From NCBI GenBank assembly GCA_028279745.1, contig JANQNC010000001.1, forward strand, positions 1,050,001 through 1,082,000: DNA of 32,000 nt, in the 5' to 3' direction. The position numbers and the translations under genes were made by a program. The notes below the pieces were generated by a model that was not told where the DNA came from, made no database searches, and worked only from the letters and a program-made list of their open reading frames with translations. The stretch is from Candidatus Nanoarchaeia archaeon. Lineage in GTDB: Archaea; Nanobdellota; Nanobdellia; Woesearchaeales; JANQNC01. Shown here one piece after another: positions 2,394 through 29,488 of this stretch; position 1 is the stretch's first letter; every line of letters starts with the position of its first letter.

Positions 2394-2987
2394 ATGGAAG
2401 AAGGAGAAGAAAAGAAAAAATGTGAACAATGTGGTGCAGACGCTTGCGAAGCATGCGAAGGCTGCAAGAACTGTGAAACATGCACATGTGAAGCACCAGA
2501 AGAAAAACCTGCTGAAGAAGCTCCTGCAGAGGAAGCGCCAGCTGAAGAAGAAAAGCCTGCTGAAGAAGAAGAGGAAGAAGACGGCGGAGATCAGCCTGAT
2601 GAGGGTGGCGACAAGCCAGATGAAGAACCTGCTGAACCAGGTGAAGAACCAACAGAACCTCCAGCAGAAGAAGAGGAAGAAGAAGATAACGGAGATCAAC
2701 CTGACGAAGGAGGGGATCAGCCTGATGAAGAGCCTGCTAAGCCTGACGAAGAGCCAGCTGAGCCAGGAGAAGGACCTGCTGAACCTCCAGCAGAAGAAGA
2801 GGAAGAAGAAGATAACGGTGACGAAGGTAGTGGTGACTCAGGGGATGAAGAACCTGCTGAACCTGGAGAAGAACCAACAGAACCTCCAGCAGAAGGAGAT
2901 GAAGGCGGAGATCAACCTGACGAAGAACCTGCTGAACCTGGAGAAGAACCAACAGAACCACCAGCAGAAGAACCTAAAGAAGAGTAA
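2394..2987 (+). CDS. Cys-cluster head (paralogous to 2203-2370) fused to a repetitive polyacidic Pro/Glu/Asp-rich tail
   Basis: SD GGAGG lies 10 nt upstream. The head CEQCGADACEACEGCKNCETCTC matches the C-terminus CQNCGGCKNCGTCTC of the upstream gene. About 165 aa of EEPAEPGEEPTEPPAEE-type repeats follow, with no aromatic or aliphatic core. Confidence 0.55.
   Translation: MEEGEEKKKCEQCGADACEACEGCKNCETCTCEAPEEKPAEEAPAEEAPAEEEKPAEEEEEEDGGDQPDEGGDKPDEEPAEPGEEPTEPPAEEEEEEDNGDQPDEGGDQPDEEPAKPDEEPAEPGEGPAEPPAEEEEEEDNGDEGSGDSGDEEPAEPGEEPTEPPAEGDEGGDQPDEEPAEPGEEPTEPPAEEPKEE
2622..2970 (+). repeat. in-frame coding repeats: near-identical 49-nt unit three times plus a degenerate copy
   Basis: The unit gaagaacctgctgaacc(a/t)gg(t/a)gaagaaccaacagaacc(t/a)ccagcagaag occurs at 2622-2670, 2847-2895 and 2922-2970. 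A diverged copy lies near 2749-2800. Confidence 0.85.
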
Positions 2988-3902: not shown

Positions 3903-4592
3903 TTATTTCTTTTTACCTAAAGCAACCGCGGCTACTGCAACAATTCCCACTAGGGCCCCAATTGAGAGGATAGAACTGTTAATTTCGGGAACTGCATCAC
4001 TTTCTGGTCCAGCAACAAATAATGGGCAGTCATCAAAGTATCCTGGCGTGTAGTCTATATCTTGGCCAGGGTTGATTATGTGCGGGCCTGTTCCTGAGTA
4101 ATCACTATAGTAGTTATCTGCCCAGGCCATAACGCCTGATTGTCCAGGTCCTCTTAAAGCAGCAACTGCATAATTTTTCCCGTTAAAGCAGTTACCGGTT
4201 GCAGATGAACCTTCGTAAACATCACTGAAAGCAGGTTGGATCTGTAACGCTCTGATGTTTGTTGCTGTTACTTTATTGTTGGTAAGTGTGAAAGGTGTGG
4301 TTGCACCATCTATACCTATTCCTCCCCAAGCAGAGTTTATGATGCAATTCTTGATAGTCGCAGGACTTCCAGAGTTCATAATAACGCCGTAAGTTCCGTT
4401 TATTGTGTACCCGTCACAGTCTAGTGTTCCGCCATTTATATTTACTGCCCCGTATCCGGTACAGCCTGTTATGTCTTCAGTTAGAACAACAGTTCCACTT
4501 GATATTGTCTGACCGCACTGACCTTGTGTGAATGCACTCACTAATCCAACAGCAAACAAAGCCATTAGACAAAATATCATTAATTTCTTCAT
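3903..4592 (-). CDS. secreted parallel beta-helix (NosD/CASH-like) surface protein with C-terminal membrane anchor
   Basis: Signal peptide MKKLMIFCLMALFAVGLVSA. The pattern GTVVLTEDITGCTGYGAVNINGGTLDCDGYTINGTYGVIM...IKNCIIN is typical of PbH1 repeats. The C-terminus is VPEINSS + ILSIGALVGIVAVAAVAL + GKKK. SD GAGGTGAT lies 9 nt upstream. Confidence 0.6.
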   Translation of the reverse strand: MKKLMIFCLMALFAVGLVSAFTQGQCGQTISSGTVVLTEDITGCTGYGAVNINGGTLDCDGYTINGTYGVIMNSGSPATIKNCIINSAWGGIGIDGATTPFTLTNNKVTATNIRALQIQPAFSDVYEGSSATGNCFNGKNYAVAALRGPGQSGVMAWADNYYSDYSGTGPHIINPGQDIDYTPGYFDDCPLFVAGPESDAVPEINSSILSIGALVGIVAVAAVALGKKK

Positions 4593-4984: not shown

Positions 4985-6685
4985 TCACCTCTTATTTTTT
5001 TCTCTTAAATCTGATCTAACCTCTTCTGAAAGCATAGTCCTTTTCAGGAGCCAAATTGAAAGTAATATAGCAACGCTGAACCCTGCTACAGGTATAATCG
5101 GGATTCCTTGGTATATAAAGGTTGTGTCAACCTGCATAACCAGGGCGGAACCAACTATCAATGCAGCAATAATCATACCAACACTGACATTACCTGAACT
5201 TCTCTCAAGCTCAGCAGTCATATTTTTAATGTCAGAATCTTCTAAATCAATGTTAATGTTGCCTTTTCTTAACCGGTCTAGTATTTCTAAGCTGCTTTTT
5301 GGAAGTACAGATAAAAGTTCTTTGTAAGTAGATGCAGCCTTTAATGCAGACTTCTTGATCTGTTGAGGATAGAACTTTTTTCTAAGGATTTTCTTCAGAA
5401 GAGGCTTGGTTTGTTCAACCAGCTTAAAATCAGGATTATATCTGACGCCAATACCTTCCAAAGTTATAACTGTCTTGCCAAATAGAACAAAGTCAAGAGG
5501 AAGTTGTATCTTGTATTGTAAAGCAAGATCCATAACTTGTTCAAGAACTATGCTGACCTCCACATCTTTCAGAGAGGAATACTGGAGATTACCAATTAGT
5601 ACTGTCAGATCTCTCTTGAAAGCTCTTGCATCAAATTCTTTTTCATCAACAGCACCTAAACTCAAGAAAGTTCTAACTAGCTTATCAACTTCTTTGTTAG
5701 CGACAGCCATAAAGATATCTAAAGATTTATTTCTTAGGTCATCATCAAATTTACCTACAATGCCGAAATCAACAAAACCTATCTTTTTACCTTTTGTCAA
5801 GAAAATGTTTGCAGGATGGGGATCCGCATGGAAAAAACCATGCTCAAAAATCATAGTTATCACATTAGCGTACACTTTGTCTATAACTTTTATGTAGCCA
5901 CCAGCAGATCGTTTTACTTTGTTAAACTGATTCAGAGGAGTTCCATCAATAAAATCAGTAGTCAAGACTTTTTCGGTAGTAAATTCTGAGTATACTTCGG
6001 GAATGTACACGTCTTTATTTTTTTCAAAGTTTTTCTTGATGGTTTTTGCATTCAAAGATTCAATCTTATAATTTAATTCATCGTGGGTGTAACGCTCAAA
6101 CTCTTGCACAACACTTATAAGATCATAGTTAGCCAGCTCTTTGACATGCTTTTGTAATAGCTGAGCGACATGATACAGAATTTCAATATCTGTATCAATA
6201 ACTTTTCGTATATCTGGTCTTTGAACCTTAACCGCAACAACTTTTCCATCTTTTAGTTTAGCTTTATGAACTTGGCCCAAAGAAGCAGCAGCCAAAGGTT
6301 TTGTATCAAAAGATTTGAAAGCTTTACTTAATGGTTGGTGAAGCTCAGACTCAACAATCTTTTTTACATCTTTAAAAGGAAAGCTAGGGACTTTATCCTG
6401 CATCTTTTCAAACTCAAAGATGTACTCTTTAGGAACTAAATCAGGTCTTAAGCTTAGTAGTTGGCCTAACTTAACAAAAGTAGGACCTAGTTTTTCAAAT
6501 GCTCTTCTTAGGTGAACAGAAGGATGATATCTATGTTCAAACTTCTTAGCAAACCTTTTTGTGAGAGGCAAATGTTTCATCAGCTTAGACCTTTCAAACA
6601 GATAACCAAAACCTTCCTCAAAGAAGATTAATAGAATTTTTCTTAATCTATTGATGTCTCTTACCTCTTTTCTAATGTTAAACAT
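4985..6685 (-). CDS. ubiB: ABC1/UbiB-family atypical protein kinase
   Basis: AAASLGQVHKAKLKDGKVVAVKVQRP, FFHADPHPANIF and VDFGIVG motifs. Two C-terminal TM helices. SD GAGG lies 6 nt upstream. Confidence 0.9.
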   Translation of the reverse strand: MFNIRKEVRDINRLRKILLIFFEEGFGYLFERSKLMKHLPLTKRFAKKFEHRYHPSVHLRRAFEKLGPTFVKLGQLLSLRPDLVPKEYIFEFEKMQDKVPSFPFKDVKKIVESELHQPLSKAFKSFDTKPLAAASLGQVHKAKLKDGKVVAVKVQRPDIRKVIDTDIEILYHVAQLLQKHVKELANYDLISVVQEFERYTHDELNYKIESLNAKTIKKNFEKNKDVYIPEVYSEFTTEKVLTTDFIDGTPLNQFNKVKRSAGGYIKVIDKVYANVITMIFEHGFFHADPHPANIFLTKGKKIGFVDFGIVGKFDDDLRNKSLDIFMAVANKEVDKLVRTFLSLGAVDEKEFDARAFKRDLTVLIGNLQYSSLKDVEVSIVLEQVMDLALQYKIQLPLDFVLFGKTVITLEGIGVRYNPDFKLVEQTKPLLKKILRKKFYPQQIKKSALKAASTYKELLSVLPKSSLEILDRLRKGNINIDLEDSDIKNMTAELERSSGNVSVGMIIAALIVGSALVMQVDTTFIYQGIPIIPVAGFSVAILLSIWLLKRTMLSEEVRSDLREKNKR

Positions 6686-10256: not shown

Positions 10257-11321
10257 ATGGCAACAAATAACAAAAACTATCTATTCTTGATCTTCATAGC
10301 ACTATTTTTTGTGCTATCATACATGTTAGTGAAACCATTCATAAGCGCATTAGTGGGTGCAATAGTTGTAACATATGTTCTTTATCCAATCTATAACTGG
10401 TTATACACTAAAACACGAAAACCAAACTTGACGGCAACCGTCATGATAATCGCGATTTTGTTGATAATCACCGTGCCGTTTGTTTTAGTCAGTAACCTAA
10501 TAATAACTGAATCAACAAACCTTTACGAAATAATAGAACAAGGTAATTTTGGAGAAGAATTTTTCTCAACAAACTCAACATGTACTGAAGGATTGATGTG
10601 TACGGGAGCAATGTTCATCAACGAAAAAGCATCAGACCCTTTTGTTGTAGAAAATTTTACAGAGGTTGCCAAAAATTTGATATCCTTACTTTTCCAAAAA
10701 GGATCAACATTCTTATTATCATTACCTGAAAGAGTACTTTTCCTATTCATACTTTTATTCACAAGCTTTTACCTGTTTAAAGAAGGACCAAAAGTTGTAG
10801 AGTTCATAAAAAAACTTATGCCATTAGGAGAGAAGAATAAAAACAGAATAATGAACAAACTGCAAGAGGTAGTTTATGCAACAATCTATGGTGCAGTTGT
10901 AATAGCGATATTCCAAGGATCAATAGCGGGGATAGGATACTTCTTATTTGGTATAACTAACTACGCGACACTTGCAATACTGACTATGATGGCTTCTCTA
11001 CTTCCGTTTGTGGGAACAGGACTTGTGTGGGTTCCAGTATCCATATACTTAGCTGCGCAAGGAATATTATTGTCTAACAATTCATTAGTTTGGAGGGGAG
11101 TGGGATTATTCTTGTTTGGCGCATTAATAGTTGCAACCATAGACAACCTGATAAGACCAAAAGTTGTAGGTGATAGAGCAAAAGTAAACCCAGTCATAAT
11201 CCTTTTAGGAGCATTTGGAGGGTTGAGGTTGTTTGGATTCTTTGGAATCTTTGTAGGTCCTGTAATTCTAGTCATACTGTTAACACTTCTAGAGATCTAC
11301 CTTGAGGCAAAGAAAAGATGA
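10257..11321 (+). CDS. AI-2E/PerM (UPF0118) family membrane transporter
   Basis: I place the start at ATG 10257 (MATNNKNYLF...); the track start at 10173 lies inside the tRNA. LPFVGTGLVWVPVSIYL and DNLIRPKVVGDRAKVNPVIILLGAFGG motifs. Confidence 0.8.
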   Translation: MATNNKNYLFLIFIALFFVLSYMLVKPFISALVGAIVVTYVLYPIYNWLYTKTRKPNLTATVMIIAILLIITVPFVLVSNLIITESTNLYEIIEQGNFGEEFFSTNSTCTEGLMCTGAMFINEKASDPFVVENFTEVAKNLISLLFQKGSTFLLSLPERVLFLFILLFTSFYLFKEGPKVVEFIKKLMPLGEKNKNRIMNKLQEVVYATIYGAVVIAIFQGSIAGIGYFLFGITNYATLAILTMMASLLPFVGTGLVWVPVSIYLAAQGILLSNNSLVWRGVGLFLFGALIVATIDNLIRPKVVGDRAKVNPVIILLGAFGGLRLFGFFGIFVGPVILVILLTLLEIYLEAKKR

Positions 11322-12814
11322 AACTAGTCGTAAAGGACATCGACATTGAAGCAGGAAGATTTCTCATAGCATTACTAAACCAAGAAGATGCAAGAAAATT
11401 AGATCTGCATCATGGTGACAGAGTTAAGATAAAAAAAGGAAACAAAGAGACGGTTGCATTCATAGACATATCAACAAACCCAGAAAAATTGGGGTTGGGA
11501 GAGATAGGATTCTTTGAAGAATTACTTAATGAGATGAAAGTCAAAGAAGGCGATGTGGTTGATATGGTAGTTGCGCAAAAACCCCAATCAGTAGGCTGCA
11601 TAAGGAGAAAGATGGAAGGCAGAGTGCTTAACTATGAAGACACAAAAAGAGTTGTAGAAGACATAATAGGAAATAAACTATCAGATGTAGAACTAACATA
11701 CTTTGTAGCAAGCACGTATGCAAGGGGGATGTCGCTGGAGGAAATTACTGCACTTACGAGAGCGATGATAGAAACAGGAGACAAAGTAGAGCTAGATACA
11801 CATCCCATAATGGACAAACATTGTATAGGGGGAGTTCCTGGGAACAGAACAACACCCCTGGTAGTTCCAATACTTGCAGCTGCGGGACTGACAATACCAA
11901 AAACAAGTTCAAGAGCAATTACAAGTCCGTCAGGAACGGCAGACACACTTGAAGTTTTGATGACAACAAACGTTACCAAAGATAAAATGATAAAAGTTGT
12001 CAACAAGACAAATGGGTGTATGGTGTGGGGTGGAGGAATGATAAATCTTTCACCTGCAGATGATAGGATAGTCGTTATAGAACACTCGCTTGGAATAGAT
12101 GCAGAAGGACAGATGCTGGCAAGCATATTGGCAAAAAAATTATCTGTATCTGCAACAGATATCTTGATAGACATACCTGTGGGCAGAGGAGCAAAAGTAG
12201 AGAGTAAAGAAAAAGCATTACACATAAAAAATTCTTTTGAGAAAATTGCAAAAGTGTTTAACGTAAAAACAAAAGTGATCATAACAGACGGCAACCAACC
12301 GATAGGCAATGGGATAGGGCCCATGTTGGAAGCAAAAGATGTACTTTATGTTCTTATGAACGATAAAAGAGCGCCAAAAGACCTGGAAGAAAAAGGAATT
12401 GCGATGGCAGGACTACTTTTAGAGATGGGTGGTAAGGCAGCAAAAGGAGAAGGAAAGAAAAAAGCACTAAGCATACTAAGAAGCGGTGAAGCTTTAGCAA
12501 AATTCAAAGAGATAGCACAATCACAAGGCAAAGCAGAACTAGATCCTGAAAAACTAGTCGAAGCAGAGTTCAAATATGAGTTTAGAGCAGAAAGAGAAGG
12601 GAAAGTTACAAGAATAGATAACAAAGCGATATCAAGAGTGGCAAGAATTGCGGGAGCGCCACATAACAAAAAAGCAGGAGTGATGCTGCATAGAAAAGTA
12701 GGTGATGTGGTGTTGAAAAATCAACCACTATTCACAATATACTCAGAATCAGCAACAAAACTACAATATGCATATGAAGAATTTGAAAGAATAGATGGTT
12801 TTGTTGTAAACTAA
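11318..12814 (+). CDS. deoA: AMP phosphorylase (archaeal thymidine-phosphorylase-family enzyme with N-terminal extension)
   Basis: MKLVVKDIDIEAGRFLIALLNQEDARKL N-domain, DKHCIGGVPGNRTT, and TSSRAITSPSGTADTLE. ATGA overlap with the upstream gene. Confidence 0.85.
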   Translation: MKLVVKDIDIEAGRFLIALLNQEDARKLDLHHGDRVKIKKGNKETVAFIDISTNPEKLGLGEIGFFEELLNEMKVKEGDVVDMVVAQKPQSVGCIRRKMEGRVLNYEDTKRVVEDIIGNKLSDVELTYFVASTYARGMSLEEITALTRAMIETGDKVELDTHPIMDKHCIGGVPGNRTTPLVVPILAAAGLTIPKTSSRAITSPSGTADTLEVLMTTNVTKDKMIKVVNKTNGCMVWGGGMINLSPADDRIVVIEHSLGIDAEGQMLASILAKKLSVSATDILIDIPVGRGAKVESKEKALHIKNSFEKIAKVFNVKTKVIITDGNQPIGNGIGPMLEAKDVLYVLMNDKRAPKDLEEKGIAMAGLLLEMGGKAAKGEGKKKALSILRSGEALAKFKEIAQSQGKAELDPEKLVEAEFKYEFRAEREGKVTRIDNKAISRVARIAGAPHNKKAGVMLHRKVGDVVLKNQPLFTIYSESATKLQYAYEEFERIDGFVVN

Positions 12815-14802
12815 TTCTTTGGCAGCTTATATTTGAAATCTTCAATAGGGTAAGGTTTATGGATATCTTTCATGAACTGAGCCCAGATAGGAAGTGCTGC
12901 TTTAGCACCAGTCTCTTTATTACCGATAGAAGTTCTATCATCTAGGCCCACCCAAACACCTGTCGTGTATTGAGGTGTAAAGCCGATAAACCAAGCGTCT
13001 TTACAATCATTAGTTGTACCTGTCTTGCCGCCTGCAGGTCTTGTGAAACCATACCATTTAGCACCTCTTCCAGTGCCGTCTTGGATTACAGATTCTAAAA
13101 TCTCAACAACTTTATATGCTGCGTCAGGATTAAGAGCTGTTCTTTCTTTAGGCTCGTGTTCAACAATCAGCTCTTTCCCATCCCGCAGTATTACTTTGTT
13201 TATCATGAAAGGTTCTCTGTAAATTCCGTCGTTAGCGAAAACAGAATAAACAGAAGTCATCTCTAAAGGAGTAGCATCAAAAGCACCAATCGCTAAAGAA
13301 GGGTAAGGTCTCATCTTAGACTTAACACCTAACATCTTAGCATATGTGATAACATTATCTAACCCAATATCTTTACCAAGAAGAATTGTTGGAATGTTTC
13401 TTGAATGCTTACAAGTCTCCTTTAAGGAAACTGGCCCGATATAATCTGGCTTGTAATTTTTAGGTATCCAGATGTTATTAAGATCATCTTTGTAGACAAA
13501 AGGGATGTCCATCAACATAGACTCGACTTCGTAACCATTATCAAGAGCTGCTGCATAAACAACAGGCTTAAATGAAGAACCTGGGCTTCTCATAGCTTGA
13601 ACTGCTCTGTTGAACTTGCTTTCGCTAAAGTCTCTACCTCCGACCATTGCAACAATTGCGCCATCTGAATTGTCAATGCTAACTAAAGCAGCCTGAACTT
13701 TTTTATCTGTACCTTTGAAGTTTTTCTGTTTCCTGTCTAGTATTTTCTTAACATAATGTTCAGCAATCTTTTGAAATTCAAAGTTAAGAGTGGTATAAAT
13801 ATTGTAACCCTTCGAGTAAAAATCTTTATAGCTGATTATCTTTGGACTTAGTGTTTTCCTAACTTCTTCAATAAAGTAAGCACCGACCCCGCTGTTTTCT
13901 GTAAGCGTAACTTTGGGGATGTTTTCTTTTTTGAGAGAGTCATAATCTTCTTTTGAGATCTTTTTATCTTTTAACATTTTCCAAAGGACTATGTTTTTTC
14001 TTTTGTTTGCCCTTTTTGGGTGCAAGTCTGGTCTGTACCTTTCAGGAGACTGGATCATCCCTGCAAGCAAAGCGCATTCAACTTGAGAAAGCTCACCAAG
14101 ATTTTTTCTGAAATATTTTTTTGATGCTGCCTTGATGCCATAAACACCGCTGCCTAAATATGCCTGGTTAAGATAAAGCTCAAGAATCTTATCTTTATCA
14201 TATCTGTTCTCAAGCCTTACTGCAGTAATGCCTTCTTTGATCTTACGGCTAATGGATTTTTCATTTCCAACAAAAAGGTTCTTAGCTAGTTGTTGTGTTA
14301 TTCCGCTGCCACCTCTGCTAAAACCAGAAAGTATTGCGTTAGCTAATCCTCCATAGTTAACTCCGTTGTGTTCTCTGAACTGAGCATCTTCAGTTGCAAT
14401 AACTGCTTTAATGAGATCTTGAGGCATACTATCAATAGGAGCAAGCTCTCTGTTTTCGATAAAGTGTTCCTCAATCAGCTGATTATCTGAAGAATAAACT
14501 CTTGTAACTGCTCCCTGTTTGATGTTATCAATCTGTGAAGGGGTGGGTAAAGAAGGTATGAGGCTTGCAATGTATAGGGAGCCTCCAACTAGTGTTCCAA
14601 TAAAACCTCTTTTGATCCATTTTAGAGCATTACGCTTTTTGTCAGATGATGGAAGTGTTACAGATTGTTTTGGTGTTTCAACTATTGTTTCTAAATCTTC
14701 TAGCTCTGGTTCAATTTTGGGTGTTGGAACTACCTCTTTTTGCTTTTTATCATCAGAACCCATGCCTGGAGGGGTTAGATCACTATCAAAATCACGAGCC
14801 AT
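12811..14802 (-). CDS. ponA: class A penicillin-binding protein (GT51 glycosyltransferase plus transpeptidase), bacterial type
   Basis: GT51 motifs EDAQFREHNG, GGSGITQQ, RKIKE and KDKILELYLN. Transpeptidase motifs SPGSSFK, SRN and KTGT. One N-terminal TM helix. Confidence 0.9.
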   Translation of the reverse strand: MARDFDSDLTPPGMGSDDKKQKEVVPTPKIEPELEDLETIVETPKQSVTLPSSDKKRNALKWIKRGFIGTLVGGSLYIASLIPSLPTPSQIDNIKQGAVTRVYSSDNQLIEEHFIENRELAPIDSMPQDLIKAVIATEDAQFREHNGVNYGGLANAILSGFSRGGSGITQQLAKNLFVGNEKSISRKIKEGITAVRLENRYDKDKILELYLNQAYLGSGVYGIKAASKKYFRKNLGELSQVECALLAGMIQSPERYRPDLHPKRANKRKNIVLWKMLKDKKISKEDYDSLKKENIPKVTLTENSGVGAYFIEEVRKTLSPKIISYKDFYSKGYNIYTTLNFEFQKIAEHYVKKILDRKQKNFKGTDKKVQAALVSIDNSDGAIVAMVGGRDFSESKFNRAVQAMRSPGSSFKPVVYAAALDNGYEVESMLMDIPFVYKDDLNNIWIPKNYKPDYIGPVSLKETCKHSRNIPTILLGKDIGLDNVITYAKMLGVKSKMRPYPSLAIGAFDATPLEMTSVYSVFANDGIYREPFMINKVILRDGKELIVEHEPKERTALNPDAAYKVVEILESVIQDGTGRGAKWYGFTRPAGGKTGTTNDCKDAWFIGFTPQYTTGVWVGLDDRTSIGNKETGAKAALPIWAQFMKDIHKPYPIEDFKYKLPKN

Positions 14803-18810: not shown

Positions 18811-20287
<1,477 letters not shown>

Positions 20288-20529
20288 TTTTTTATTTTTT
20301 CAAATTTTCTTATAAACGATTTTTTCTCTGTTTTTGTCAGAAAAAGTGATAAAAACGCTGATTTAAGCTTGTTTTCACCATTCTCAAATGGGAACAGTTC
20401 AAAAGTTTTATATACTATCTGGTATTCCTTATACTAAATATAAGTGGGGGTAGGATGATTGTTATAGTGTTGAAAAAGCTTGTTTTAGGCTTTTTTAAAT
20501 AAAAAAATAGCGACAAGGGGGTTATAACT

Positions 20530-22575
20530 GTGTACAACCAAAATAACAATTACAAAACAAACGGATTTTCTTTTAGGAGATTATTAGGAGCAGCAGCAAT
20601 TTCGCTAATGCTTTACACTGGAGTAAGGGCTGCAGAAAAACCTGCAGGATTCAGTATGGAAGCAGGATCATCAAAAAAGAAAGTGATGCTGGTTCCAGAT
20701 GTAGAACCAGAACCTGTGGATCTACAAAAAATATTGGAGGACAGTTCAGATGTTGAACCGGAACCAAGTGCTGCACCAGCACCTGCACCTGCGGTAAAAC
20801 CTAAACCTAAAAAAGACCATCTTACACCAAACGAGCCAGTGCAGTACACAAACAAGATAACTTCTGAAACATATCAAAAAATGAAAAAGCTGGCTGAAAA
20901 GGATAACCGATTAGGATTGATAAGATTAATAGATGTACAATCAGGAGACAGAAAACTAGAATCAATAATGTATTCAGAAAAAGGAAAAGCAATACAGCTA
21001 AACCTTTACAACGACAAGAATGAATACAAACAAAGAGAGATAAGGTTAAATGATTATCTGATGGCGGATGTAAAAAAGTATGAAGAGTTAGCAGCAAAAT
21101 TAAAAGAAGAAGAGCCAAAATCTGAACCGCCAAAGAAAGAAAAGAAAAAGAAGAAAAAAGGACCAAGTTTGTTTGGAAAACTAATAAAGAACATAGCAAA
21201 CAGGCTAACTTTAGATGGTTCATCAAGAAACTATCTTTCTGATGGAGACAATTTCAGCACAGACAACAATTTAGGAGCTAGTATATTTGATTTTACAAAA
21301 ATAAACTTTAACGTAGGGAAAACAGGATATGGGAAAGACGAAGTATTCCAAGGATCAATTAACGATGTGGATTATTCACAAGAAGATAATACTGTGATGA
21401 GTTCATTTAACCTTGGGGGTGGATTATTGTTGACGCCTGAAGCATCAGAAATACTTCTAGCATTCCAAAGAGTTACAGACAAAATGGATATAAACTCAGT
21501 ATACAATGAAGACGTATCAATATCAGAGGTAGTAAGTGGAGAATTGTACAATGCACTGATCCATACAAATCAGCTAGACAGCATAAAGATAAAAAATAAA
21601 ACAGACTTATTGAGAGCAGGAGTTGCAAGAACAATCTTCGGTAACTCACTAAAGCTAGGGTTATACGGGCATTACATGAAGAATAATTCACAAAGCAACA
21701 CTTCAATGAGAGAATATGAAAGTGGTATAGAATCATTGACTTATGATTCAACAATGTCAAACGGGTTTGATACGACTTTATTCATATTCAACGATACAAT
21801 ACCTGCAACACTAACGGACTCAAAAGATGAAGAGATAAGATCAGAACAAAAAATAATAACTGGAATGCCTTCCGTATTCTGGAACTGGGGACCACTAGTT
21901 CTTGGAGGAGCAGGAATCTACTCATCAATAAAAGAGATAAGAGACACAGTAGGTGTTGGAGACATAAAGACAAGCAGCAACTACAAAGCAGGATCAGTTA
22001 ATTTTGGGATACAATTCTGGAAACTATTCTCAAGCTCGTTCTTCGGAGCAAGCTCAGACTTTGAAAACCTGAGAGTGTCACAAACATTCTACCTATCAGA
22101 TGAGAAACCAGGGCACATAGTAACTGAAAAAATATCAGGAATACAAAGCAACCTGATGATGAACGATCTTGAAAGAATGTTGGCAGCAGCAACATCACAA
22201 AAACAATTGGGACAGTTAGGGGTAGGAATGCATCCATTATCAATCATAGACCAATATGGGTTGATGAGAGATTTACCTGACTTTAACCAGTTAACATTAG
22301 ACTATGAAAAAGTAGATAGATTCGATCTAGAAGGAGAGATAATGAGAGTGGCTGCAGCACTTAAGCTAGTAGACAAAGGAAATAAAGCTGCAAGCTTTGT
22401 TGCAGAAGGAAGCAAAATACATGTAACAGGAGATCCAGACGATCTTTACTCAATGCTGGCAGGAATCATGGGGAAATTTGGAAGCTGGTATGTTATGCCA
22501 GTACTAAAGATCAACATGAAAGGAGATGAAAGCGTAGCATCCGCAGGATTAACCGTAGGATTAAAAGCAAGATAG
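20530..22575 (+). CDS. secreted or anchored protein: signal-like helix, Pro-rich and Lys-rich linkers, large beta-rich C-terminal domain
   Basis: GTG start 8 nt after AGGGGG. N-terminus is FRRLLGAAAISLMLYTGVRA. Linkers are EPEPSAAPAPAPAVKPKPKK and KKEKKKKKKG. The C-terminal approximately 470 aa show alternating-hydrophobic strand patterns. Confidence 0.6.
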   Translation: MYNQNNNYKTNGFSFRRLLGAAAISLMLYTGVRAAEKPAGFSMEAGSSKKKVMLVPDVEPEPVDLQKILEDSSDVEPEPSAAPAPAPAVKPKPKKDHLTPNEPVQYTNKITSETYQKMKKLAEKDNRLGLIRLIDVQSGDRKLESIMYSEKGKAIQLNLYNDKNEYKQREIRLNDYLMADVKKYEELAAKLKEEEPKSEPPKKEKKKKKKGPSLFGKLIKNIANRLTLDGSSRNYLSDGDNFSTDNNLGASIFDFTKINFNVGKTGYGKDEVFQGSINDVDYSQEDNTVMSSFNLGGGLLLTPEASEILLAFQRVTDKMDINSVYNEDVSISEVVSGELYNALIHTNQLDSIKIKNKTDLLRAGVARTIFGNSLKLGLYGHYMKNNSQSNTSMREYESGIESLTYDSTMSNGFDTTLFIFNDTIPATLTDSKDEEIRSEQKIITGMPSVFWNWGPLVLGGAGIYSSIKEIRDTVGVGDIKTSSNYKAGSVNFGIQFWKLFSSSFFGASSDFENLRVSQTFYLSDEKPGHIVTEKISGIQSNLMMNDLERMLAAATSQKQLGQLGVGMHPLSIIDQYGLMRDLPDFNQLTLDYEKVDRFDLEGEIMRVAAALKLVDKGNKAASFVAEGSKIHVTGDPDDLYSMLAGIMGKFGSWYVMPVLKINMKGDESVASAGLTVGLKAR

Positions 22576-22588
22576 AGGGGGTTGGAAA

Positions 22589-25500
22589 GTGAAAAATAAA
22601 ATAATAACAATCATCTTAATGGCACTGTTTGTTGTCTCAGTTGTAGCAGCAACAGACGTAAGAGCGCCAAGAGCGTCAATAAGTGCAGTTGGGGTAGCAA
22701 ACTCACAGAGCAGCGCACAGCTAGTTCTAGTAGCAAGAGATATAGGACATGGAAATGATGGACTATCAAGACTAGAAGTAGAGCTAGTAGAAACAGGACA
22801 GGTAGTGCATTCAAGATCAATAGCTAACGAAGTTATTTTCTCAGAAACAATTTCAGTAACTAAGATGAGAAAAGGAACCAACACCTATAAACTGAAAGTA
22901 TGGGACTTAGCAGGAAACTACGATGATGATACTGTAAAAGTAGACTTCGTAAACAACAAACCCTCAATCTCACTAAACTATCCAGCCTTAGATGTTTACG
23001 AAACAGGCATAGTGCCAATCAACTTTACACTAACAGATATAGATAATGAAACAGTCAAAGTGGGTGCAGTAATGTATTCATGTGGTCACTTAGGGGATCT
23101 AGAGGTAATAACAAACTTACAGAACGATCCAAACTATGCATTTACAAACACCGAAAACGGAGTAGATGTAGTTTATGATTGGAATACTTCTCAGAGTTTA
23201 CAAGAAGGAGAAGATTGTTATGTAAGAGTATCAATATTTGATTCAGAAAGTATTGTGGGTGGAAATAGTGAAGAGTTTAAGATATCAAATGTGCAGCCAC
23301 AGATAACACTTGAAGATGTTTCACCTTGGAACATAAACACAGGCACAGTTCAAATTGAATTCAACACAACAAAAGAAGCAGCAGTAACAAGTGTTTCTGT
23401 TAATGGCAATTCAGCAACTGTATCCGGGGATAATAATACTAACTTTGTGTACACATATGATGTGACTGCAGCAGACCCAGATGGAGATGCAGAAATAATC
23501 ATAGCAATGACAGACCTTTACGGATTAAATGCAACATTTAGAGATGCATCATTCTTATTTGTTGACCAGACAGGACCAACTATCGAGAACGAAGGAGTTC
23601 AAGATGGAGAAATAATCAGCGATAATCAAACAACGCTTGATGTAGAAATTGAAGATGCAGGGGTTGGAGTAAACGAATCAACACTATTGATAACAGTTAA
23701 TGGTCCGACTTTTTCACAAACGTATTCAGTAGATGATCAAGAGATAGTTTGGGATGGAGATGCTCAAGCAACACTTGATCCAACTGAAGCAGTATCATTA
23801 TCAAGCTTACCTGATGGAAGATACAACATATCAGTTTTAGTTGATGATAACTTAGGAATTGGATCAACAGATAACTGGTATTTCATAGTAGATACAACTG
23901 CACCAAATATAACAATATCATACCCGCAAGATGAAGACATACTGAACTCAGGAAATGTTCCAGTTAATGTCACCGTATCTGACGTTAACGGACTAGATGA
24001 AGTGTGGGTGATGAACGGAAATAATAAGTTCAATACAACATTAAATGGTGGAGTATATCAAACAACTGTGCCATTCACAACAAATGGTGTAAAGAATTTA
24101 GTTGCTTACGCAAATGATACTGCAGGAAATCTAGCAAGTGACGCAATCTCAATCACAGTAGATAGAGATATGGAAGCGCCTGTAATCAACAACACACAAC
24201 CAACCGCAACAAACGATAACACGCCCACAATCACAGCAAATGTATATGATGATGGAAGTGGAGTAAATGCATCAAGCATAGTGCTAGCAGTTGGCGGAAG
24301 TTCATACACAACAACTGATAGTGAATTAAATTTCACATCAGATACATTAACATTTATCCCTGGATCTTCATTAGGAGATGGTGTGACAGCTGTTAAGATA
24401 AATGCCAGCGACAACGAAGGAAACGAAGCATACAAAACATGGAACATTGAGATAGACTCGACAGACCCAGTTGTTGCAATAACATCGCCAACAAACGGAT
24501 CAATCACAGGAACAGATGTTACAGTACAATTCACAATAACAGAAGATAACCTGGATTATGTTCAGGTAAGAACAAACACAGGAAACTGGATGAACATATC
24601 AGGATCAACAGCAAACTTATTCACATCACTAACAAAAGATGTAGTGAACGAGCTGCAAGTAAGAGCATTTGACGAAGCAGGAAACTCAGGAACAGATTCT
24701 GTGTTTGTGAATTCATCACAAGACAACTCACTACCAGAGATAAGCTTCGTGTATCCTGTAGAAGGACAAAGGATCAAAACAAACGTGTTTAATGTAAGCG
24801 TTAACGCAACAGACAACGTAGCGATAGTCGCAGTAAATGTAAATGATGGAACAAATACAACAGTAATGTCCAATGGAGGTTCTGGCGATATATACATGGC
24901 AGAACTGAACCTTACAGATGGAAACTACTTGTTAAGAGCATTCGCAAACGACACATCAGGAAACAATGCAACAACATCAGTTAACATTAATGTAAACACA
25001 AACATAACATATGGGGTCTTAACGGGACAAGTAACAGACAACAATAATGTTGGAATCTTTAATGCACTAGTAAGCGGATATCTGGGAGATGAACTAATCA
25101 ACAGCACAACAACAAGTGCAGACGGAAGTTATTCTATGATATTAGAAGAAGGATTCTATACAATAAACGTAACAGCACCATCACACCAAACAACATCAAC
25201 AACGGAAACCGTTGGAAGTGTTATAGCAATAAAGAACGTACAGCTACTGCCTGTAGAAGATGTAAGTGTGGACTTAGTTAATGTGGTGGGAAGCTTAGTA
25301 GAAAAACAAACACTGACAGTCCAAGCAAACCTATCAAAAAGATTGTCAGCAACACAGACCGTTAATGCAACACTATCAGTAGATTCAACACCAGTAGAAT
25401 CAAAACAGTTAGTGTTAGGACAATCAGGAAGTGTAAGCTTTGATATAATTGCACAAGAAGGATTAAAGACACTAAAAGTTTCTGTGATGCCTTTATCAGG

Positions 25501-25885
25501 AGAGCAGAACACAGTAAATAACGAAAAAACAACCCAGATAACATCTGACGCAATCGAAGATGCAGTAAGCCTGAATATTTTTGCACCGCCTTACAACCTG
25601 GCTGGGAACACACAATACAACATTCCAGTAATTGTAGTCAATAAAGGAGATAAAGCACTTCAGGACGTTCAGATAAATGTTACAGCACAAACAGGAATCA
25701 CTGTAAATGGAGATGAGATGAAAACAATAGACTTACCATTAGGAAACTCAACAACCCTAACATGGTTAGTAACAACAGGAACAGTAGACGCGGGAGTGGG
25801 AGAAAACACAATAACATCTACAGCATACAACTTAGTGAACTCAACAGACACACTAAGATCGGCAGTAGGCCAAGGGTTTAGTTAA
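22589..25885 (+). CDS. large surface or S-layer-like adhesin with repeated Ig-like, carboxypeptidase-regulatory-like and CARDB-like modules
   Basis: GTG start 7 nt after GAGGGGG. Signal-like helix IITIILMALFVVSVVAA. Recurrent D-x-(A/S/E)-G-N module ends: WDLAGNYDDD, ANDTAGNLASD, ASDNEGNEAYK, AFDEAGNSGTD, ANDTSGNNATT. GVLTGQVTDNNNVGIFNALVSGY...DGSYSM. SGEQNTVNNEKT. Many N-x-S/T sequons. Confidence 0.7.
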   Translation: MKNKIITIILMALFVVSVVAATDVRAPRASISAVGVANSQSSAQLVLVARDIGHGNDGLSRLEVELVETGQVVHSRSIANEVIFSETISVTKMRKGTNTYKLKVWDLAGNYDDDTVKVDFVNNKPSISLNYPALDVYETGIVPINFTLTDIDNETVKVGAVMYSCGHLGDLEVITNLQNDPNYAFTNTENGVDVVYDWNTSQSLQEGEDCYVRVSIFDSESIVGGNSEEFKISNVQPQITLEDVSPWNINTGTVQIEFNTTKEAAVTSVSVNGNSATVSGDNNTNFVYTYDVTAADPDGDAEIIIAMTDLYGLNATFRDASFLFVDQTGPTIENEGVQDGEIISDNQTTLDVEIEDAGVGVNESTLLITVNGPTFSQTYSVDDQEIVWDGDAQATLDPTEAVSLSSLPDGRYNISVLVDDNLGIGSTDNWYFIVDTTAPNITISYPQDEDILNSGNVPVNVTVSDVNGLDEVWVMNGNNKFNTTLNGGVYQTTVPFTTNGVKNLVAYANDTAGNLASDAISITVDRDMEAPVINNTQPTATNDNTPTITANVYDDGSGVNASSIVLAVGGSSYTTTDSELNFTSDTLTFIPGSSLGDGVTAVKINASDNEGNEAYKTWNIEIDSTDPVVAITSPTNGSITGTDVTVQFTITEDNLDYVQVRTNTGNWMNISGSTANLFTSLTKDVVNELQVRAFDEAGNSGTDSVFVNSSQDNSLPEISFVYPVEGQRIKTNVFNVSVNATDNVAIVAVNVNDGTNTTVMSNGGSGDIYMAELNLTDGNYLLRAFANDTSGNNATTSVNINVNTNITYGVLTGQVTDNNNVGIFNALVSGYLGDELINSTTTSADGSYSMILEEGFYTINVTAPSHQTTSTTETVGSVIAIKNVQLLPVEDVSVDLVNVVGSLVEKQTLTVQANLSKRLSATQTVNATLSVDSTPVESKQLVLGQSGSVSFDIIAQEGLKTLKVSVMPLSGEQNTVNNEKTTQITSDAIEDAVSLNIFAPPYNLAGNTQYNIPVIVVNKGDKALQDVQINVTAQTGITVNGDEMKTIDLPLGNSTTLTWLVTTGTVDAGVGENTITSTAYNLVNSTDTLRSAVGQGFS

Positions 25886-25900
25886 TAGAGGTACGTTAAA

Positions 25901-27571
25901 ATGAACAAGACACTAATCACAATATTGATGCTTTTGGTAGTTCCTTTAGCATCAGCAATCTATGTAGAGAATACAGACACAAACTCAAGCTTTAATGCTA
26001 CTTTGCCTGTAAGTGTAGTTGTATGGGCAGATGCAGGAGCATTAACAGACGTAAATGTAACACTGACCTCTGATGCTAACACAGTAATATCAGGATCACC
26101 AGACCAAGTTGGAAACGTAGCAAACGGTGGATTTGGGATAGCAACATTTGATCTACAAAGCGATGTTGCAGGAAGCCACGCAGTAACAGCAAACGTCTCT
26201 TATGTTGGAGGAGACTACTTACACAACTTTACATTCGATGTAGCAGCAGCTGCAACAGAACCAGACTTTGAACTGGTTGTGGAGAACCCAGTAAATGTAG
26301 AGATAAACAAAAATTTCAATATTGTTGTAAACGTAACAAATAACGGAACCGCAACAGAAACAGGAATACAAGTATCAATCGTACTTCCAGCAGGAGCAAC
26401 AACAAGTTACTCTGGTGGAACTTTCAGCTTAACTCCTGGACAGACAAGATCAGAAACACTAATCGTTAATTCCTCAACAACAGGAGACAAAAGTTTCACT
26501 GTAAAAGCAGATGGAGCAACACAATACGCAGAACAGACGCTAGATATCATGACAACAGACGCATCAGCTCCGGATCTAGAATTAAAAACACTAACCGCAA
26601 CAAATACTGTTGAAAACCAAGCAGCAACAATTACAACAAATCTAAATAACAACGGGATTGATTCAGAGCTAGCAGTAGTCAAGCTATATGTTGATAATGT
26701 TTTAGCAGACACACAAAATGTTAACATAAACGGTGGAACAACACAAGAGATCAATTTCACACATACCTTCACATCAGAAGGAACAAAAACAGTCAATGTA
26801 ACAGTTGACGTCGTAAGTGGAGAGACAGACACAACAAACAACAACGTTCAGACAACATTCTCAGTCACAAAACAGTCCTCTGGAGGTTCAGGCGGGAGTT
26901 CGGGAAGTGGGAGAAGATCATCAGGAAGTGGTGGCGGAATCATAACTGGCACAATAACCAAAGCAGTAACTTTTGATGCAGGAGAGACAAGACAAGTATT
27001 AGGAACGGATAACGCAGTCTCATTCAGATACAAGGGCGTAGAACACAAAGTTACAGTTCTTACAGTAAGAACAGACAGTGTAGAACTTAAAGTAGAATCA
27101 GAAACAACACTAATGAACTTAAGTGTTGATGAGACAAAAACTGCACCATTAGATGGCATTGAAGGAGATGATCTTGCAGTAACACTAAACGCAATAACCT
27201 TTGGAAAAGCAGATCTTACATTTGAGCTAATCCAACAACAGATCGATATAAGCGACAGCAACATAATCGACGATACAGCAGATAACGCTGTTGGTGATGC
27301 TGACGACAAAAAACCAAGTGTAATAGACTTCGCAGGACTAAGAATCTTAGATCTTGACAAGAAAGGAAGAGGAGTCTTGATTGCAGTAATTGTAGCGTTA
27401 TCAGTTCTTTTAGCAGCAGCAATCGTTTTAATCGTACTGTTCGGCACAGGAAAAATAGAAGTTGACGAGAAAAAAGCAAAAGCAGCAAAGCGGAAGAAGA
27501 TGAGAGCGAAGATCAAAAAGATGGAAGAAGAGATCGAGCAGACTAAGAAAAACATAAGAAAAGTGAGATAA
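25901..27571 (+). CDS. CARDB-repeat surface protein with C-terminal TM anchor and basic tail
   Basis: Signal peptide LITILMLLVVPLASA. CARDB-like NVTNNGTATETGIQV and SGETDTTNNNV. Gly/Ser linker SSGGSGGSSGSGRRSSGSGGG. TM helix VLIAVIVALSVLLAAAIVLIVLF followed by a K/R-rich tail. Confidence 0.7.
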   Translation: MNKTLITILMLLVVPLASAIYVENTDTNSSFNATLPVSVVVWADAGALTDVNVTLTSDANTVISGSPDQVGNVANGGFGIATFDLQSDVAGSHAVTANVSYVGGDYLHNFTFDVAAAATEPDFELVVENPVNVEINKNFNIVVNVTNNGTATETGIQVSIVLPAGATTSYSGGTFSLTPGQTRSETLIVNSSTTGDKSFTVKADGATQYAEQTLDIMTTDASAPDLELKTLTATNTVENQAATITTNLNNNGIDSELAVVKLYVDNVLADTQNVNINGGTTQEINFTHTFTSEGTKTVNVTVDVVSGETDTTNNNVQTTFSVTKQSSGGSGGSSGSGRRSSGSGGGIITGTITKAVTFDAGETRQVLGTDNAVSFRYKGVEHKVTVLTVRTDSVELKVESETTLMNLSVDETKTAPLDGIEGDDLAVTLNAITFGKADLTFELIQQQIDISDSNIIDDTADNAVGDADDKKPSVIDFAGLRILDLDKKGRGVLIAVIVALSVLLAAAIVLIVLFGTGKIEVDEKKAKAAKRKKMRAKIKKMEEEIEQTKKNIRKVR

Positions 27572-28068: not shown

Positions 28069-28244
28069 ACTCTTCTGACTCTGACAACACCTTTACTTCT
28101 GAAAGAAAAAATAAAGTTCATCCCAATTATGAACAAAATAATTCCTATGAATGACTTTAGAAACAGTTTTAGGAAATCTATCATTAACAAGATGCCAACA
28201 ATAACAAGTATGATTCCAATCACTGCAAAAATTATTCGTTTCAT
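28065..28244 (-). CDS. 59-aa two-TM membrane protein (below the ORF-track cutoff)
   Basis: Its ATG overlaps the TGA of the upstream coiled-coil gene (ATGA). Product is MKRIIFAVIGIILVIVGILLMIDFLKLFLKSFIGIILFIIGMNFIFSFRSKGVVRVRRV. Confidence 0.45.
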   Translation of the reverse strand: MKRIIFAVIGIILVIVGILLMIDFLKLFLKSFIGIILFIIGMNFIFSFRSKGVVRVRRV

Positions 28245-29488
28245 AGTAAGATAGTCACCTTAACATTAGTTTGAGCTCGGATCTTTTCAGATAGCTCTTC
28301 AAGTTGGTTGTCTGTATTGATCAAGTTAAGATCATGAGTCTTGTTCTCAAGCTTAACCTTGGATTTGTCTAACTGATCTTTAGAATGTTTCATCATAGAA
28401 ACAATATCGTTATGAGCATAAACAGTATCATTTGATTTTAACTCTCTCTTTAACTGCTCATTTGCTTCTTTAAGATGGAAATAACTCATCTTAAAGTTAT
28501 CGAGCTTTTCCTTAGTGATCTCATTGATCTTCTTCATAACTTTATCGTCATCTTTTAGTTCTATCTCTTTTTTCAGGATTGCAATCCTAACTTCTCTAAG
28601 AACCTCTAATATCCTGAATGATGTGTCAAATAAAAGACCGTTTAATGGATCATTATATCGTGTAAGGATGTCAACGTTAGATTCTGCAACCTTTTCAAAC
28701 TTTCTGAATGCCCTGCTCAAAGGAGAGAACATCTGAGTAACTTGGAAATCAATATTTTTCAGAGCTTCTTCGTTCTTAGCTATCTTGTCTTTAGTCTCCT
28801 GGATCTTTTTGAAGCCAGCAGTGCCTTCTAAAGTTTCCAATTCTTTTTGTCTTGTCAAAATTGAAGCTTCAGTCTCTTCAATCTTTGTTTTTACTTCTTC
28901 AATCTCTGAAGTGATCTTTAATTTTTTATCAAGCTCGTTTTGTAGAGACTCAATTAAAGAATCTGTTTCGGTTAGGAACTGTGCTTCTTTACTATTAAGA
29001 GATGAGTTGATGCTTTTTATGCTGTCTTCGATCTTCTTTAAGTCTTCAGCTACCTTGCCTGATTCTTCTGCAAAGAATTCCTGTAGAATATAGAAACTCT
29101 TTCTTGCAGATTTGTTAAGAATATTGAACGATTCTGTTGCTGATTCTGTGAATTGCTTAAGATTCTCGTTAGTTTCTGGAACGGTTAGGTTGTTTAGAAA
29201 CATGCTGACCTGTTTGATGTAGTTAGACCTGTTACCAGACATAAAATTCTTTAATTTTTCTTCAATGTTTTCGTTCTTAAGCTGAGCATTTTCAAGAATA
29301 ACCAGTTTTTCTTTTGCTGAAGATATAAGTGAGTTAAGCTCACTAACCCTTTCAGTTATGCTGGTCTTATCATCTTGAAGATTTGAAGAAGTTTTCTCAC
29401 TGAGCCAGCCTTTAAGTTCATTTAAGTGTAATTCTGCAGTCTCCTCCTCTTTAGAAAAAAGTTTTTGAATTAGTCCAAATATGCCCAT
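28241..29488 (-). CDS. 415-aa coiled-coil protein with N-terminal amphipathic helix, unknown function
   Basis: SD TGGGGG lies 7 nt upstream. N-terminus MGIFGLIQKLF. Long heptad-like E/K/L-rich stretches throughout. Confidence 0.6.
   Translation of the reverse strand: MGIFGLIQKLFSKEEETAELHLNELKGWLSEKTSSNLQDDKTSITERVSELNSLISSAKEKLVILENAQLKNENIEEKLKNFMSGNRSNYIKQVSMFLNNLTVPETNENLKQFTESATESFNILNKSARKSFYILQEFFAEESGKVAEDLKKIEDSIKSINSSLNSKEAQFLTETDSLIESLQNELDKKLKITSEIEEVKTKIEETEASILTRQKELETLEGTAGFKKIQETKDKIAKNEEALKNIDFQVTQMFSPLSRAFRKFEKVAESNVDILTRYNDPLNGLLFDTSFRILEVLREVRIAILKKEIELKDDDKVMKKINEITKEKLDNFKMSYFHLKEANEQLKRELKSNDTVYAHNDIVSMMKHSKDQLDKSKVKLENKTHDLNLINTDNQLEELSEKIRAQTNVKVTILL

Follow-up and report, generated by a model that had tools for sequence, protein, structure and literature searches.

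In the Sulfolobales, the surface-layer (S-layer) proteins SlaA and SlaB are encoded by adjacent, co-oriented genes; SlaA is a large, anchorless, beta-rich, N-glycosylated outer protein, and SlaB is a smaller beta-sandwich stalk protein with a single C-terminal transmembrane (TM) helix. To our knowledge, hardly any of the surface and S-layer proteins of uncultivated archaea with small genomes have been identified, since they show no sequence similarity to the known ones. Among DPANN archaea, MJ1_0160 and MJ1_0707 of Nanobdella aerobiophila, NEQ300, and Micr_00292 have been described as putative S-layer proteins (bioRxiv 10.1101/2023.10.27.564410). Here, we analyzed a stretch of 32,000 nucleotides (nt) from a Candidatus Nanoarchaeia archaeon (GenBank assembly GCA_028279745.1, contig JANQNC010000001.1, positions 1,050,001 to 1,082,000 of the forward strand), referred to below as the window, and compared a compact unit of three genes for exported proteins with these systems. 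Coordinates given without a locus name are those of the window.

The three genes and the signals next to them are the following (aa, amino acid residues):

20516-20521, plus strand: Shine–Dalgarno (SD)-like AGGGGG of gene 1, read from the sequence; its GGGGG core (20517-20521) lies 8 nt 5' of the start
20530-22575, plus strand: gene 1, GTG start, 681 aa
22577-22581, plus strand: SD-like GGGGG of gene 2, 7 nt 5' of the start
22589-25885, plus strand: gene 2, GTG start, 1098 aa
25888-25892, plus strand: SD-like GAGGT of gene 3, 8 nt 5' of the start
25901-27571, plus strand: gene 3, ATG start, 556 aa
27576-27595, plus strand: oligo-T runs (TTTTTT...TTTTTTT) directly 3' of the gene 3 stop, the archaeal-type terminator of the unit

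The logic of the trio is that of an archaeal surface-coat operon, but the families that build it are without known relatives, and a third, conserved component is part of it. The locus is best explained as an envelope operon, inherited vertically and restricted to a lineage, in an archaeon with a small genome. A more specific proposal, which we accept and doubt in equal measure, is that it encodes a two-component S-layer-like coat that acts like SlaA/SlaB without being homologous to them and is supplemented with a new third subunit. The locus offers a concrete, conserved candidate set consisting of a canopy, an anchor, a third subunit, and a promoter.

Genes 2 and 3 resemble the SlaA/SlaB pair in being adjacent and co-oriented, in combining a large anchorless beta-rich outer protein, whose N-glycosylation is predicted from sequons, with a smaller beta-sandwich stalk protein carrying a single C-terminal TM helix, and in the linkage of the two, which is kept in the related loci L003, L008, and L002. 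They also fit the SlaA-like and SlaB-like criteria applied in the nomination of the N. aerobiophila proteins (bioRxiv 10.1101/2023.10.27.564410). Compared by description, gene 2 matches the DPANN assembly protein of about 1000 aa, which has several folds of the Ig-like type and many N-glycosylation sites but lacks a TM helix, while gene 3 matches the proposed anchor, in which Ig-like folds are combined with a C-terminal TM helix.

The differences are also clear. Genes 2 and 3 have no sequence similarity to SlaA and SlaB. The PDB holds a SlaA structure; a phmmer search of both products against all PDB chains returned no S-layer protein, only a carboxypeptidase regulatory domain and two CARDB-like chains annotated as ‘uncharacterized protein’. 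Gene 3 possesses a Gly/Ser hinge and a small membrane-proximal domain instead of the coiled coil of SlaB, a conserved gene (gene 1) precedes the pair, and the host is a mesophile-like, low-GC, small-genome archaeon rather than a crenarchaeon. Unlike the trio, the DPANN putative S-layer genes have neither an operon nor a gene 1-like partner in the published description. The archaeosortase signal (PGF-CTERM) and the S_layer_N and S_layer_C domains of euryarchaeal S-layer glycoproteins are not matched by gene 2 in Pfam and NCBIfam. The CARDB, Big_13, and Big_7 domains that build genes 2 and 3 exceed the Pfam thresholds; these are generic modules of surface proteins, which define no function.

Organization and Boundaries of the Operon

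The gap between genes 1 and 2 is 13 nt, and that between genes 2 and 3 is 15 nt. An earlier note on this DNA, made from the sequence alone, had described three co-oriented open reading frames (ORFs) of 681, 1098, and 556 aa with these gaps, two GTG starts, a G-rich SD motif before each gene, and oligo-T tracts behind the genes. The layout is exactly this, with the SD motifs located 7–8 nt from the starts. The note had also reported signal-like N-terminal helices on all three products; they are clear in the products of genes 2 and 3 and weaker in that of gene 1, which has an AxA-type cleavage site. Its leader of 240 nt stands only in part. A spacer of 242 nt does exist 5' of gene 1, opening with the T-run that ends the gene of glyceraldehyde-3-phosphate dehydrogenase (GAPDH), but it is not all leader, since it holds a promoter with a B recognition element (BRE) and a TATA box.

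This promoter on the 5' side and the oligo-T runs on the 3' side bracket the trio, as expected for one archaeal transcript, and GC content is even across the region. Layout, signal peptides, and co-conservation together support a compact operon of exported or surface proteins, as the earlier note had proposed, with genes that are presumably co-transcribed. No tRNA genes or Rfam families were found in the window. Sites detected there in a scan for sigma-70 promoters and hairpin terminators were no more frequent than in shuffled sequences; such a bacterial-type scan is irrelevant here because the organism is an archaeon. A mobile element or provirus is ruled out by the housekeeping flanks and the uniform GC content.

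Conservation of the Operon

An exhaustive HMMER scan of 1.84 billion protein representatives yielded a gene 1 family of four members, including the window copy, whose three relatives show 35%, 27%, and 27% identity. A word-indexed protein search with gene 1 returned only the query itself; with gene 2, it returned only generic Ig-domain matches and missed the true orthologues. For gene 3, two full-length orthologues were found, P0014 (51% identity) and P0015 (37%). Pattern scans for close relatives in GTDB representative genomes, made with gene 1 and with the gene 3 alignment, found no copy of either gene, and nothing was found in metagenome contigs with the gene 2 alignment. The related loci are arranged as follows:

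L003: GAPDH, gene 1, gene 2, gene 3, a 72-aa ORF, UPF0113; same neighborhood as in the window
L008: enolase (divergent), gene 1, gene 2, gene 3, then other surface genes
L007: Dus (divergent), gene 1, start of gene 2; partial
L002: end of gene 2, gene 3, UPF0113; partial

Beyond the window, the complete trio is thus present in L003 and L008 and a part of it in L007 and L002, always in the same gene order. The spacers of the orthologous loci are 5–18 nt long and contain GGGGG or GGAGG motifs, and T-runs 3' of gene 3 recur in L002, L003, and L008. The upstream neighbor varies: the window and L003 have GAPDH, L008 has enolase, and L007 has Dus. Because the order and the tight spacers persist while the flanks change, the trio is regarded as kept as a unit. 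The earlier note had named a lack of co-conservation as grounds for dropping its operon; the trio is co-conserved in these loci.

Between the window and L003, gene 1 shows 25% identity (E 5e-25, over the C-terminal 450 aa), gene 2 shows 39% end to end, and gene 3 shows 37%, compared with 68% for GAPDH, 86% for the histone, and 64% for PTH2. The trio therefore diverges faster (25–39%) than its housekeeping neighbors (64–86%), a pattern common among surface proteins. In L003 (1388-3166), gene 1 was called from a start that falls inside the conserved promoter. The true start is an internal ATG (MHKDKNNN...), giving a product of about 535 aa.

Predicted Outer Protein and Membrane Anchor

Gene 2 encodes a protein with a cleavable signal peptide (aa 1–21), a conserved mature N-terminus (DVRAP), and about 11 tandem beta-sandwich domains. 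No TM helix or other hydrophobic segment was found beyond the signal peptide. Two domains of the window copy pass the Pfam cut-offs, with higher scores in the orthologues: Big_13 (PF19077; 35.6 bits, cut-off 27) and Big_7 (PF17957; 27.3 bits, cut-off 24.1). A CarboxypepD_reg-like domain at aa 811–877 has a weak PDB match (E 0.028), and the C-terminus is a CARDB-like pair (aa 886–1098), for which the L003 orthologue passes Pfam CARDB at 26.8 bits. CarboxypepD_reg, Big_5, Glucodextran_B, and CARDB all exceed the threshold in orthologues.

The product is very acidic (isoelectric point 4.05, K+R 3.9%), rich in T+S+N (30.5%), and contains two Cys residues. It carries 34 NxS/T sequons, whereas shuffled versions of this sequence contain 22.0 ± 3.9 (z = 3.0). 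Two orthologues are enriched as well (z = 3.1 and 4.4), with 11 sequon positions common to all three proteins. Conservation extends over the whole chain and has no single peak. The earlier description of gene 2 as an anchorless, multi-module Ig-like and CARDB protein rich in sequons is borne out by these data. At its extreme C-terminus, the motif S-x-x-G-(Q/H)-G-F-x (...GQGFS in the window, nt 25862-25882) is kept in four orthologues with no TM helix after it; it may be a docking or processing signal.

Gene 3 encodes a type I membrane protein whose signal peptide occupies aa 1–19 and whose CARDB/Ig-like domains extend up to aa 320; Pfam CARDB (PF07705) scores 42.1 bits against a cut-off of 22.7, and 54.5 bits in the L008 orthologue. 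These domains are followed by a Gly/Ser hinge (aa 326–346), a membrane-proximal beta domain of about 95 aa (approximately aa 355–445), an acidic spacer, a single C-terminal TM helix (aa 496–514, approximately nt 27386-27442), and a conserved Lys/Arg-rich tail (aa 516–556) predicted to be cytoplasmic. By sequence inspection, this tail is the only helix-prone charged stretch of the protein. The CARDB modules, Gly/Ser hinge, TM anchor, and basic tail that the earlier note had listed are all present, and its assignment of gene 3 as the anchor and gene 2 as an exposed anchorless array is consistent with the TM helix, the tail, and the sequons.

The segment at aa 326–515 (approximately nt 26876-27445), which comprises the Gly/Ser linker, the domain of about 95 aa (VSF..G..H.V.VL...GKADL.F), and the TM helix, is a module not in Pfam. 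It recurs in the archaeal surface proteins P0016 (L004 10001-11965) and P0017; P0016 sits in a large glycosyltransferase, PMT, and flippase island of a marine archaeon.

Putative Third Subunit

The gene 1 product has a signal peptide at aa 1–34 with predicted cleavage near VRA|AE. Its helix is weakly hydrophobic, and an AxA-type site is found in all family members. Twin-arginine (Tat) export is ruled out, as no other family member shares the RR pair of the window copy. The protein has no membrane anchor. A window-specific stretch at approximately aa 35–225 consists of a Pro-rich region, a small low-confidence domain, and a Lys-rich part; the Pro-rich region and small domain (approximately aa 35–213) are missing from all orthologues and are therefore not part of the conserved module. 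The module itself is an all-beta domain of about 450 aa (aa 227–678, nt 21208-22563) with a helical insert at approximately aa 527–575, free of Cys and rich in Gly, Ser, Asn, Asp, and aromatic residues. Of the linkers and the large beta-rich domain seen by the earlier note, the Lys-rich linker and the domain can be retained, but the Pro-rich region belongs to the window copy only.

Searches with gene 1 against Pfam, NCBIfam, and PDB sequences gave no match. When all four family members were compared with Pfam at E-values up to 5, nothing appeared except a sub-threshold DUF4369, and the family profile had no match in the PDB at E-values up to 10. The Pfam, NCBIfam, and PDB searches place no product of the trio in a family of known function, in agreement with the earlier note.

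Two AlphaFold2 runs, one with the full gene 1 protein and one with the conserved domain alone, each from an alignment of four sequences, produced the same topology: about 18 long antiparallel strands forming a neighbor-paired meander of beta-hairpins, with the helical insert. The confidence of the models is low, with a best mean pLDDT of 54 and 57 and pTM of 0.43–0.44; the other four models of each run have values of 31–46, so only one in five exceeds a pLDDT of 50. A Foldseek search of the PDB with the full model returned confident matches that were all bacterial outer-membrane barrels (E 8e-6 to 1e-3), namely PiuD, FhuA, FoxA, CdiB, LptD, and BAM-associated barrels, TonB-dependent transporters being among them. 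The fit is weak, with template-modeling scores (TM-scores) of 0.25–0.34 and a root-mean-square deviation (rmsd) of 11–20 Å. For the cropped model, query-normalized scores (TMq) were 0.11–0.28, perforin/MAC hairpins were matched as well, and cropping did not raise the confidence. In a viral structure library, only entries resembling outer-membrane proteins (OMPs) were matched at good probability.

No consistent hydrophobic face was found on the predicted strands, most of which lack a clear one, and the dyad hydrophobicity of the strands does not discriminate a barrel from a sandwich. The C-termini of the family are ...GLKAR, ...GLEPK, ...VQLIF, and ...DIKQKN, so that an aromatic end resembling the beta-signal of barrels is seen in one of the four. 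Bacterial barrels, including TonB-dependent transporters, Omp85/TpsB proteins such as CdiB, and LptD, are the nearest structural neighbors of the models. In contrast to them, gene 1 lacks a plug or POTRA domain, a conserved beta-signal, and a match to a sequence family; its strand faces are polar, and its host is an archaeon without a known outer membrane. The models support a secreted protein built of long beta-hairpins; a barrel or pore is a hypothesis suggested by them. The ‘pore-like’ role that had been assigned to gene 1 thus retains the nearest Foldseek matches, but it is weakened by TM-scores of no more than 0.34 and by the single model in five above a pLDDT of 50.

Promoter and Upstream Element

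A block of about 58 nt located 5' of gene 1 can be aligned as DNA among the window, L003, L007, and L008, four loci in which it is kept while the proteins have diverged to 25–40% identity. Its two halves in the window are the following:

20372-20396, plus strand: upstream element TTTTCACnA-n6-AAT(A/G)Gn(A/T)ACA, left half of the block
20400-20414, plus strand: BRE-like motif (CAAAAG) and TATA box (TTTATATA; TATA at 20407-20414), right half of the block

The left-half element occurs once in the window and is possibly a transcription-factor site. In the right half, AAAGnTTTAtATA is kept in the four loci, and a similar AAAGGTTTAAATA is found upstream of the next gene in L008. The spacing from the TATA box to the start is the usual guide to archaeal transcription starts; placed in this way, transcription of the trio would begin at about 20437-20442, giving a 5' untranslated region (5'UTR) of about 90 nt. 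The fold of this 5'UTR is not more stable than those of shuffled sequences (z = −0.8).

A metagenome scan with the whole motif identified four contigs, L009, L010, L011, and L012. The source of L011 and L012 is an archaeon, as indicated by aIF5B, Trm1, and RtcA. The motif, at 6129-6172 (minus strand) in L011 and at 6877-6920 in L012, precedes an analogous set of genes for a 686-aa protein, a 1375-aa protein with PKD, Big_9, and CARDB domains, and a further secreted beta-sandwich protein. The first of these genes is the following:

L012 7131-9191, plus strand: product of 686 aa comprising a signal peptide, a long helical region rich in Ala, Lys, and Glu, and a beta C-terminal half that is Gly/Asn/Ser-rich and ends in ...QVKYDIK

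By eye, this protein is porin-like, and it has no Pfam match. No homology to gene 1 was detected with hhalign (probability 0.2) or tblastn, which makes it a case of parallel layout and not a family member. The motif common to the trio and this non-homologous operon may be a shared regulator site for envelope genes. In L009 and L010, the genes downstream of the motif are unrelated. L010, which carries split archaeal RNA polymerase B genes, contains two similar promoter-like motifs at 5050-5092 and approximately 5465-5490; the first is followed by a GC-richer stretch without an obvious ORF, which may be a small RNA.

Proposed Function and Alternative Explanations

In the S-layer-like coat that we propose, a single mRNA would be transcribed from the BRE/TATA promoter with its upstream element and would end at the oligo-T runs, and all three products would leave the cell via Sec signal peptides. 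Gene 3 would stay in the cytoplasmic membrane by its C-terminal helix with the basic tail inside, while its membrane-proximal domain, hinge, and CARDB domains would project outward as a stalk. Gene 2, acidic and presumably heavily N-glycosylated, would be held on gene 3 and form the outer canopy, and gene 1 could serve in the layer as a third structural subunit, for example, as a spacer, a pore, or a base. The sequences show the layout, its co-conservation, the signal peptides, the anchor, the domains, the composition, and the excess of sequons; that the products associate, build a lattice, and are abundant is inferred.

Several points weigh against such a coat. None of the three products matches a known S-layer family in Pfam or NCBIfam, or in the PDB in the case of genes 2 and 3, and inspection of gene 3 reveals no extracellular coiled coil of the kind typical of SlaB. 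The S-layers known to us use one or two proteins, which leaves a third conserved subunit unexplained. The true S-layer protein may be encoded elsewhere in the 1.3-Mb genome, only about five loci are known, so that the sample behind the co-conservation is small, and glycoproteins combining multiple Ig-like domains with CARDB are typical of adhesins, too.

The last point leads to an apparatus for host contact or adhesion, the candidate role named by the earlier note, in which gene 2 would be an exposed adhesin array anchored by gene 3, with gene 1 acting as a helper or as a channel where the cell touches its host. Such a module would be specialized for attachment instead of forming a general coat. 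Ig-like, CARDB, and PKD-type domains are common in adhesins, the trio proteins diverge fast, the apparently small genome (a 1.3-Mb contig) and an AMP-phosphorylase-like enzyme are compatible with a dependent lifestyle, and the gene 1 models resemble membrane barrels and pore-former hairpins. However, the trio occupies a stable position among core genes, occurs once per locus, and is conserved end to end, without the domain shuffling or copy-number variation usual for adhesins; its promoter is strongly conserved, as are sequon positions, and no lectin, protease, or toxin domain is present. We consider this apparatus a serious rival, though rather unlikely, and the data agree with a housekeeping S-layer no less well than with an adhesin. 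It is less probable again that the products are three independent secreted proteins brought together by chance or shared regulation and forming no complex. Each has its own signal peptide and SD motif, yet the order and the 5–18 nt spacing persist at about 39% protein identity despite rearrangement of the flanks, gene 2 lacks an anchor of its own, and gene 1 is found only beside gene 2.

A barrel-based export or anchoring system is hardly to be expected either. Here, gene 1 would be a transmembrane beta-barrel, in the outer membrane of a diderm archaeon or in a host membrane, that secretes or anchors gene 2, following the models of bacterial two-partner secretion, inverse autotransporters, or SlpA-type barrels. 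Both AlphaFold models do contain about 18 neighbor-paired long antiparallel strands, all confident Foldseek matches are outer-membrane barrels (E down to 8e-6), and the viral library yields only OMP-like entries. The composition of the domain (Cys-free, rich in Gly, Ser, Asn, Asp, and aromatics), the porin-like Gly/Asn-rich C-terminal half of the analogous first gene in L012, and a bacterial-type class A penicillin-binding protein (PBP) in the same genome point in the same direction. Against these stand TM-scores of 0.1–0.34 with an rmsd above 11 Å, one model in five per run above a pLDDT of 50 from an alignment of four sequences, strands without a consistent hydrophobic face, and an aromatic beta-signal in one of four members. 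No sequence match to OMP families and no POTRA or plug domain were found in gene 1, and nothing indicates an outer membrane or a BamA-like insertase. The boldest version, to which we give the least credence, makes gene 1 a genuine beta-barrel pore or anchor of the archaeal envelope, situated in a second outer layer or in the membrane of a partner cell, in an envelope that combines bacterial-type elements under a glycoprotein canopy. If it were true, this would be the first archaeal OMP-like barrel family, and together with the class A PBP it would mean that the lineage builds bacterial-type elements, namely a barrel and perhaps a murein-like polymer. Should gene 1 prove to be a barrel or pore, it would bear on how molecules pass across archaeal coats or how symbionts tap their partners.

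Genomic Neighborhood

The neighboring genes are archaeal and encode a histone, PTH2, a UPF0113/Nip7-type protein, a diphthine-synthase-like methylase, a split transketolase, and an AMP-phosphorylase-like enzyme. Because of these genes and the BRE/TATA promoters, the organism is identified as an archaeon. The contig carrying the trio is 1.3 Mb long, and an identical 17-kb copy is present in a Logan assembly. Three genes of the window upstream of the trio are the following:

11318-12814, plus strand: AMP-phosphorylase-like protein, 498 aa, with CDC48_N-like, Glycos_transf_3, and PYNP_C domains; convergent with the PBP gene
12811-14802, minus strand: class A PBP, 663 aa, bifunctional and intact, about 6 kb upstream of the trio
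19199-20287, plus strand: GAPDH as a mechanical ORF of 362 aa, which overlaps a response-regulator gene; according to NCBI and the L003 orthologue, the start is at 19292 and the length 331 aa

The domain architecture of the first protein is that of archaeal AMP phosphorylase of the nucleotide-salvage/RuBisCO pathway. The PBP gene is surrounded by archaeal genes and does not differ from them in GC content. Its Pfam matches are Transgly (E 4.6e-57) and Transpeptidase (E 2.5e-32), and its best PDB match is PBP1a 4oon (E 8e-110). Both GT51 motifs, EDAQFREHNG (EDxxFxxHxG) and RKIKE (RKxxE), are present, as are the transpeptidase motifs SSFK (SxxK), SRN (SxN), and KTG and an N-terminal TM helix. In the literature searched on DPANN archaea, proteins with lytic transglycosylase domains are described, and a class A PBP is not mentioned. 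A separate question raised by the gene is whether peptidoglycan is made or handled by this archaeon.

Three other predicted proteins of the window can be noted. A 415-aa protein encoded downstream of the trio (28241-29488, minus strand) has no Pfam family and no signal peptide and looks like a coiled coil by eye; beside the operon, it is conserved in L003 (39% identity) and in part also in L002, and it is absent from L008. A 197-aa ORF at 2394-2987 (plus strand) lies in a stretch that is locally GC-rich and strongly AT-skewed, has no Pfam match, and is overlapped by a 219-aa ORF in another frame; its Cys-rich N-terminus (CEQCGADACEACEGCKNCETCTCE) is followed by extremely acidic PAEE/EEPAEPGEEPTEPP repeats. 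The third, encoded at 3903-4592 (minus strand), is a secreted protein of 229 aa with a weak right-handed beta-helix match (21 bits, Pfam cut-off 25.9); its signal peptide and C-terminal TM helix ending in GKKK mark it as a small surface protein.

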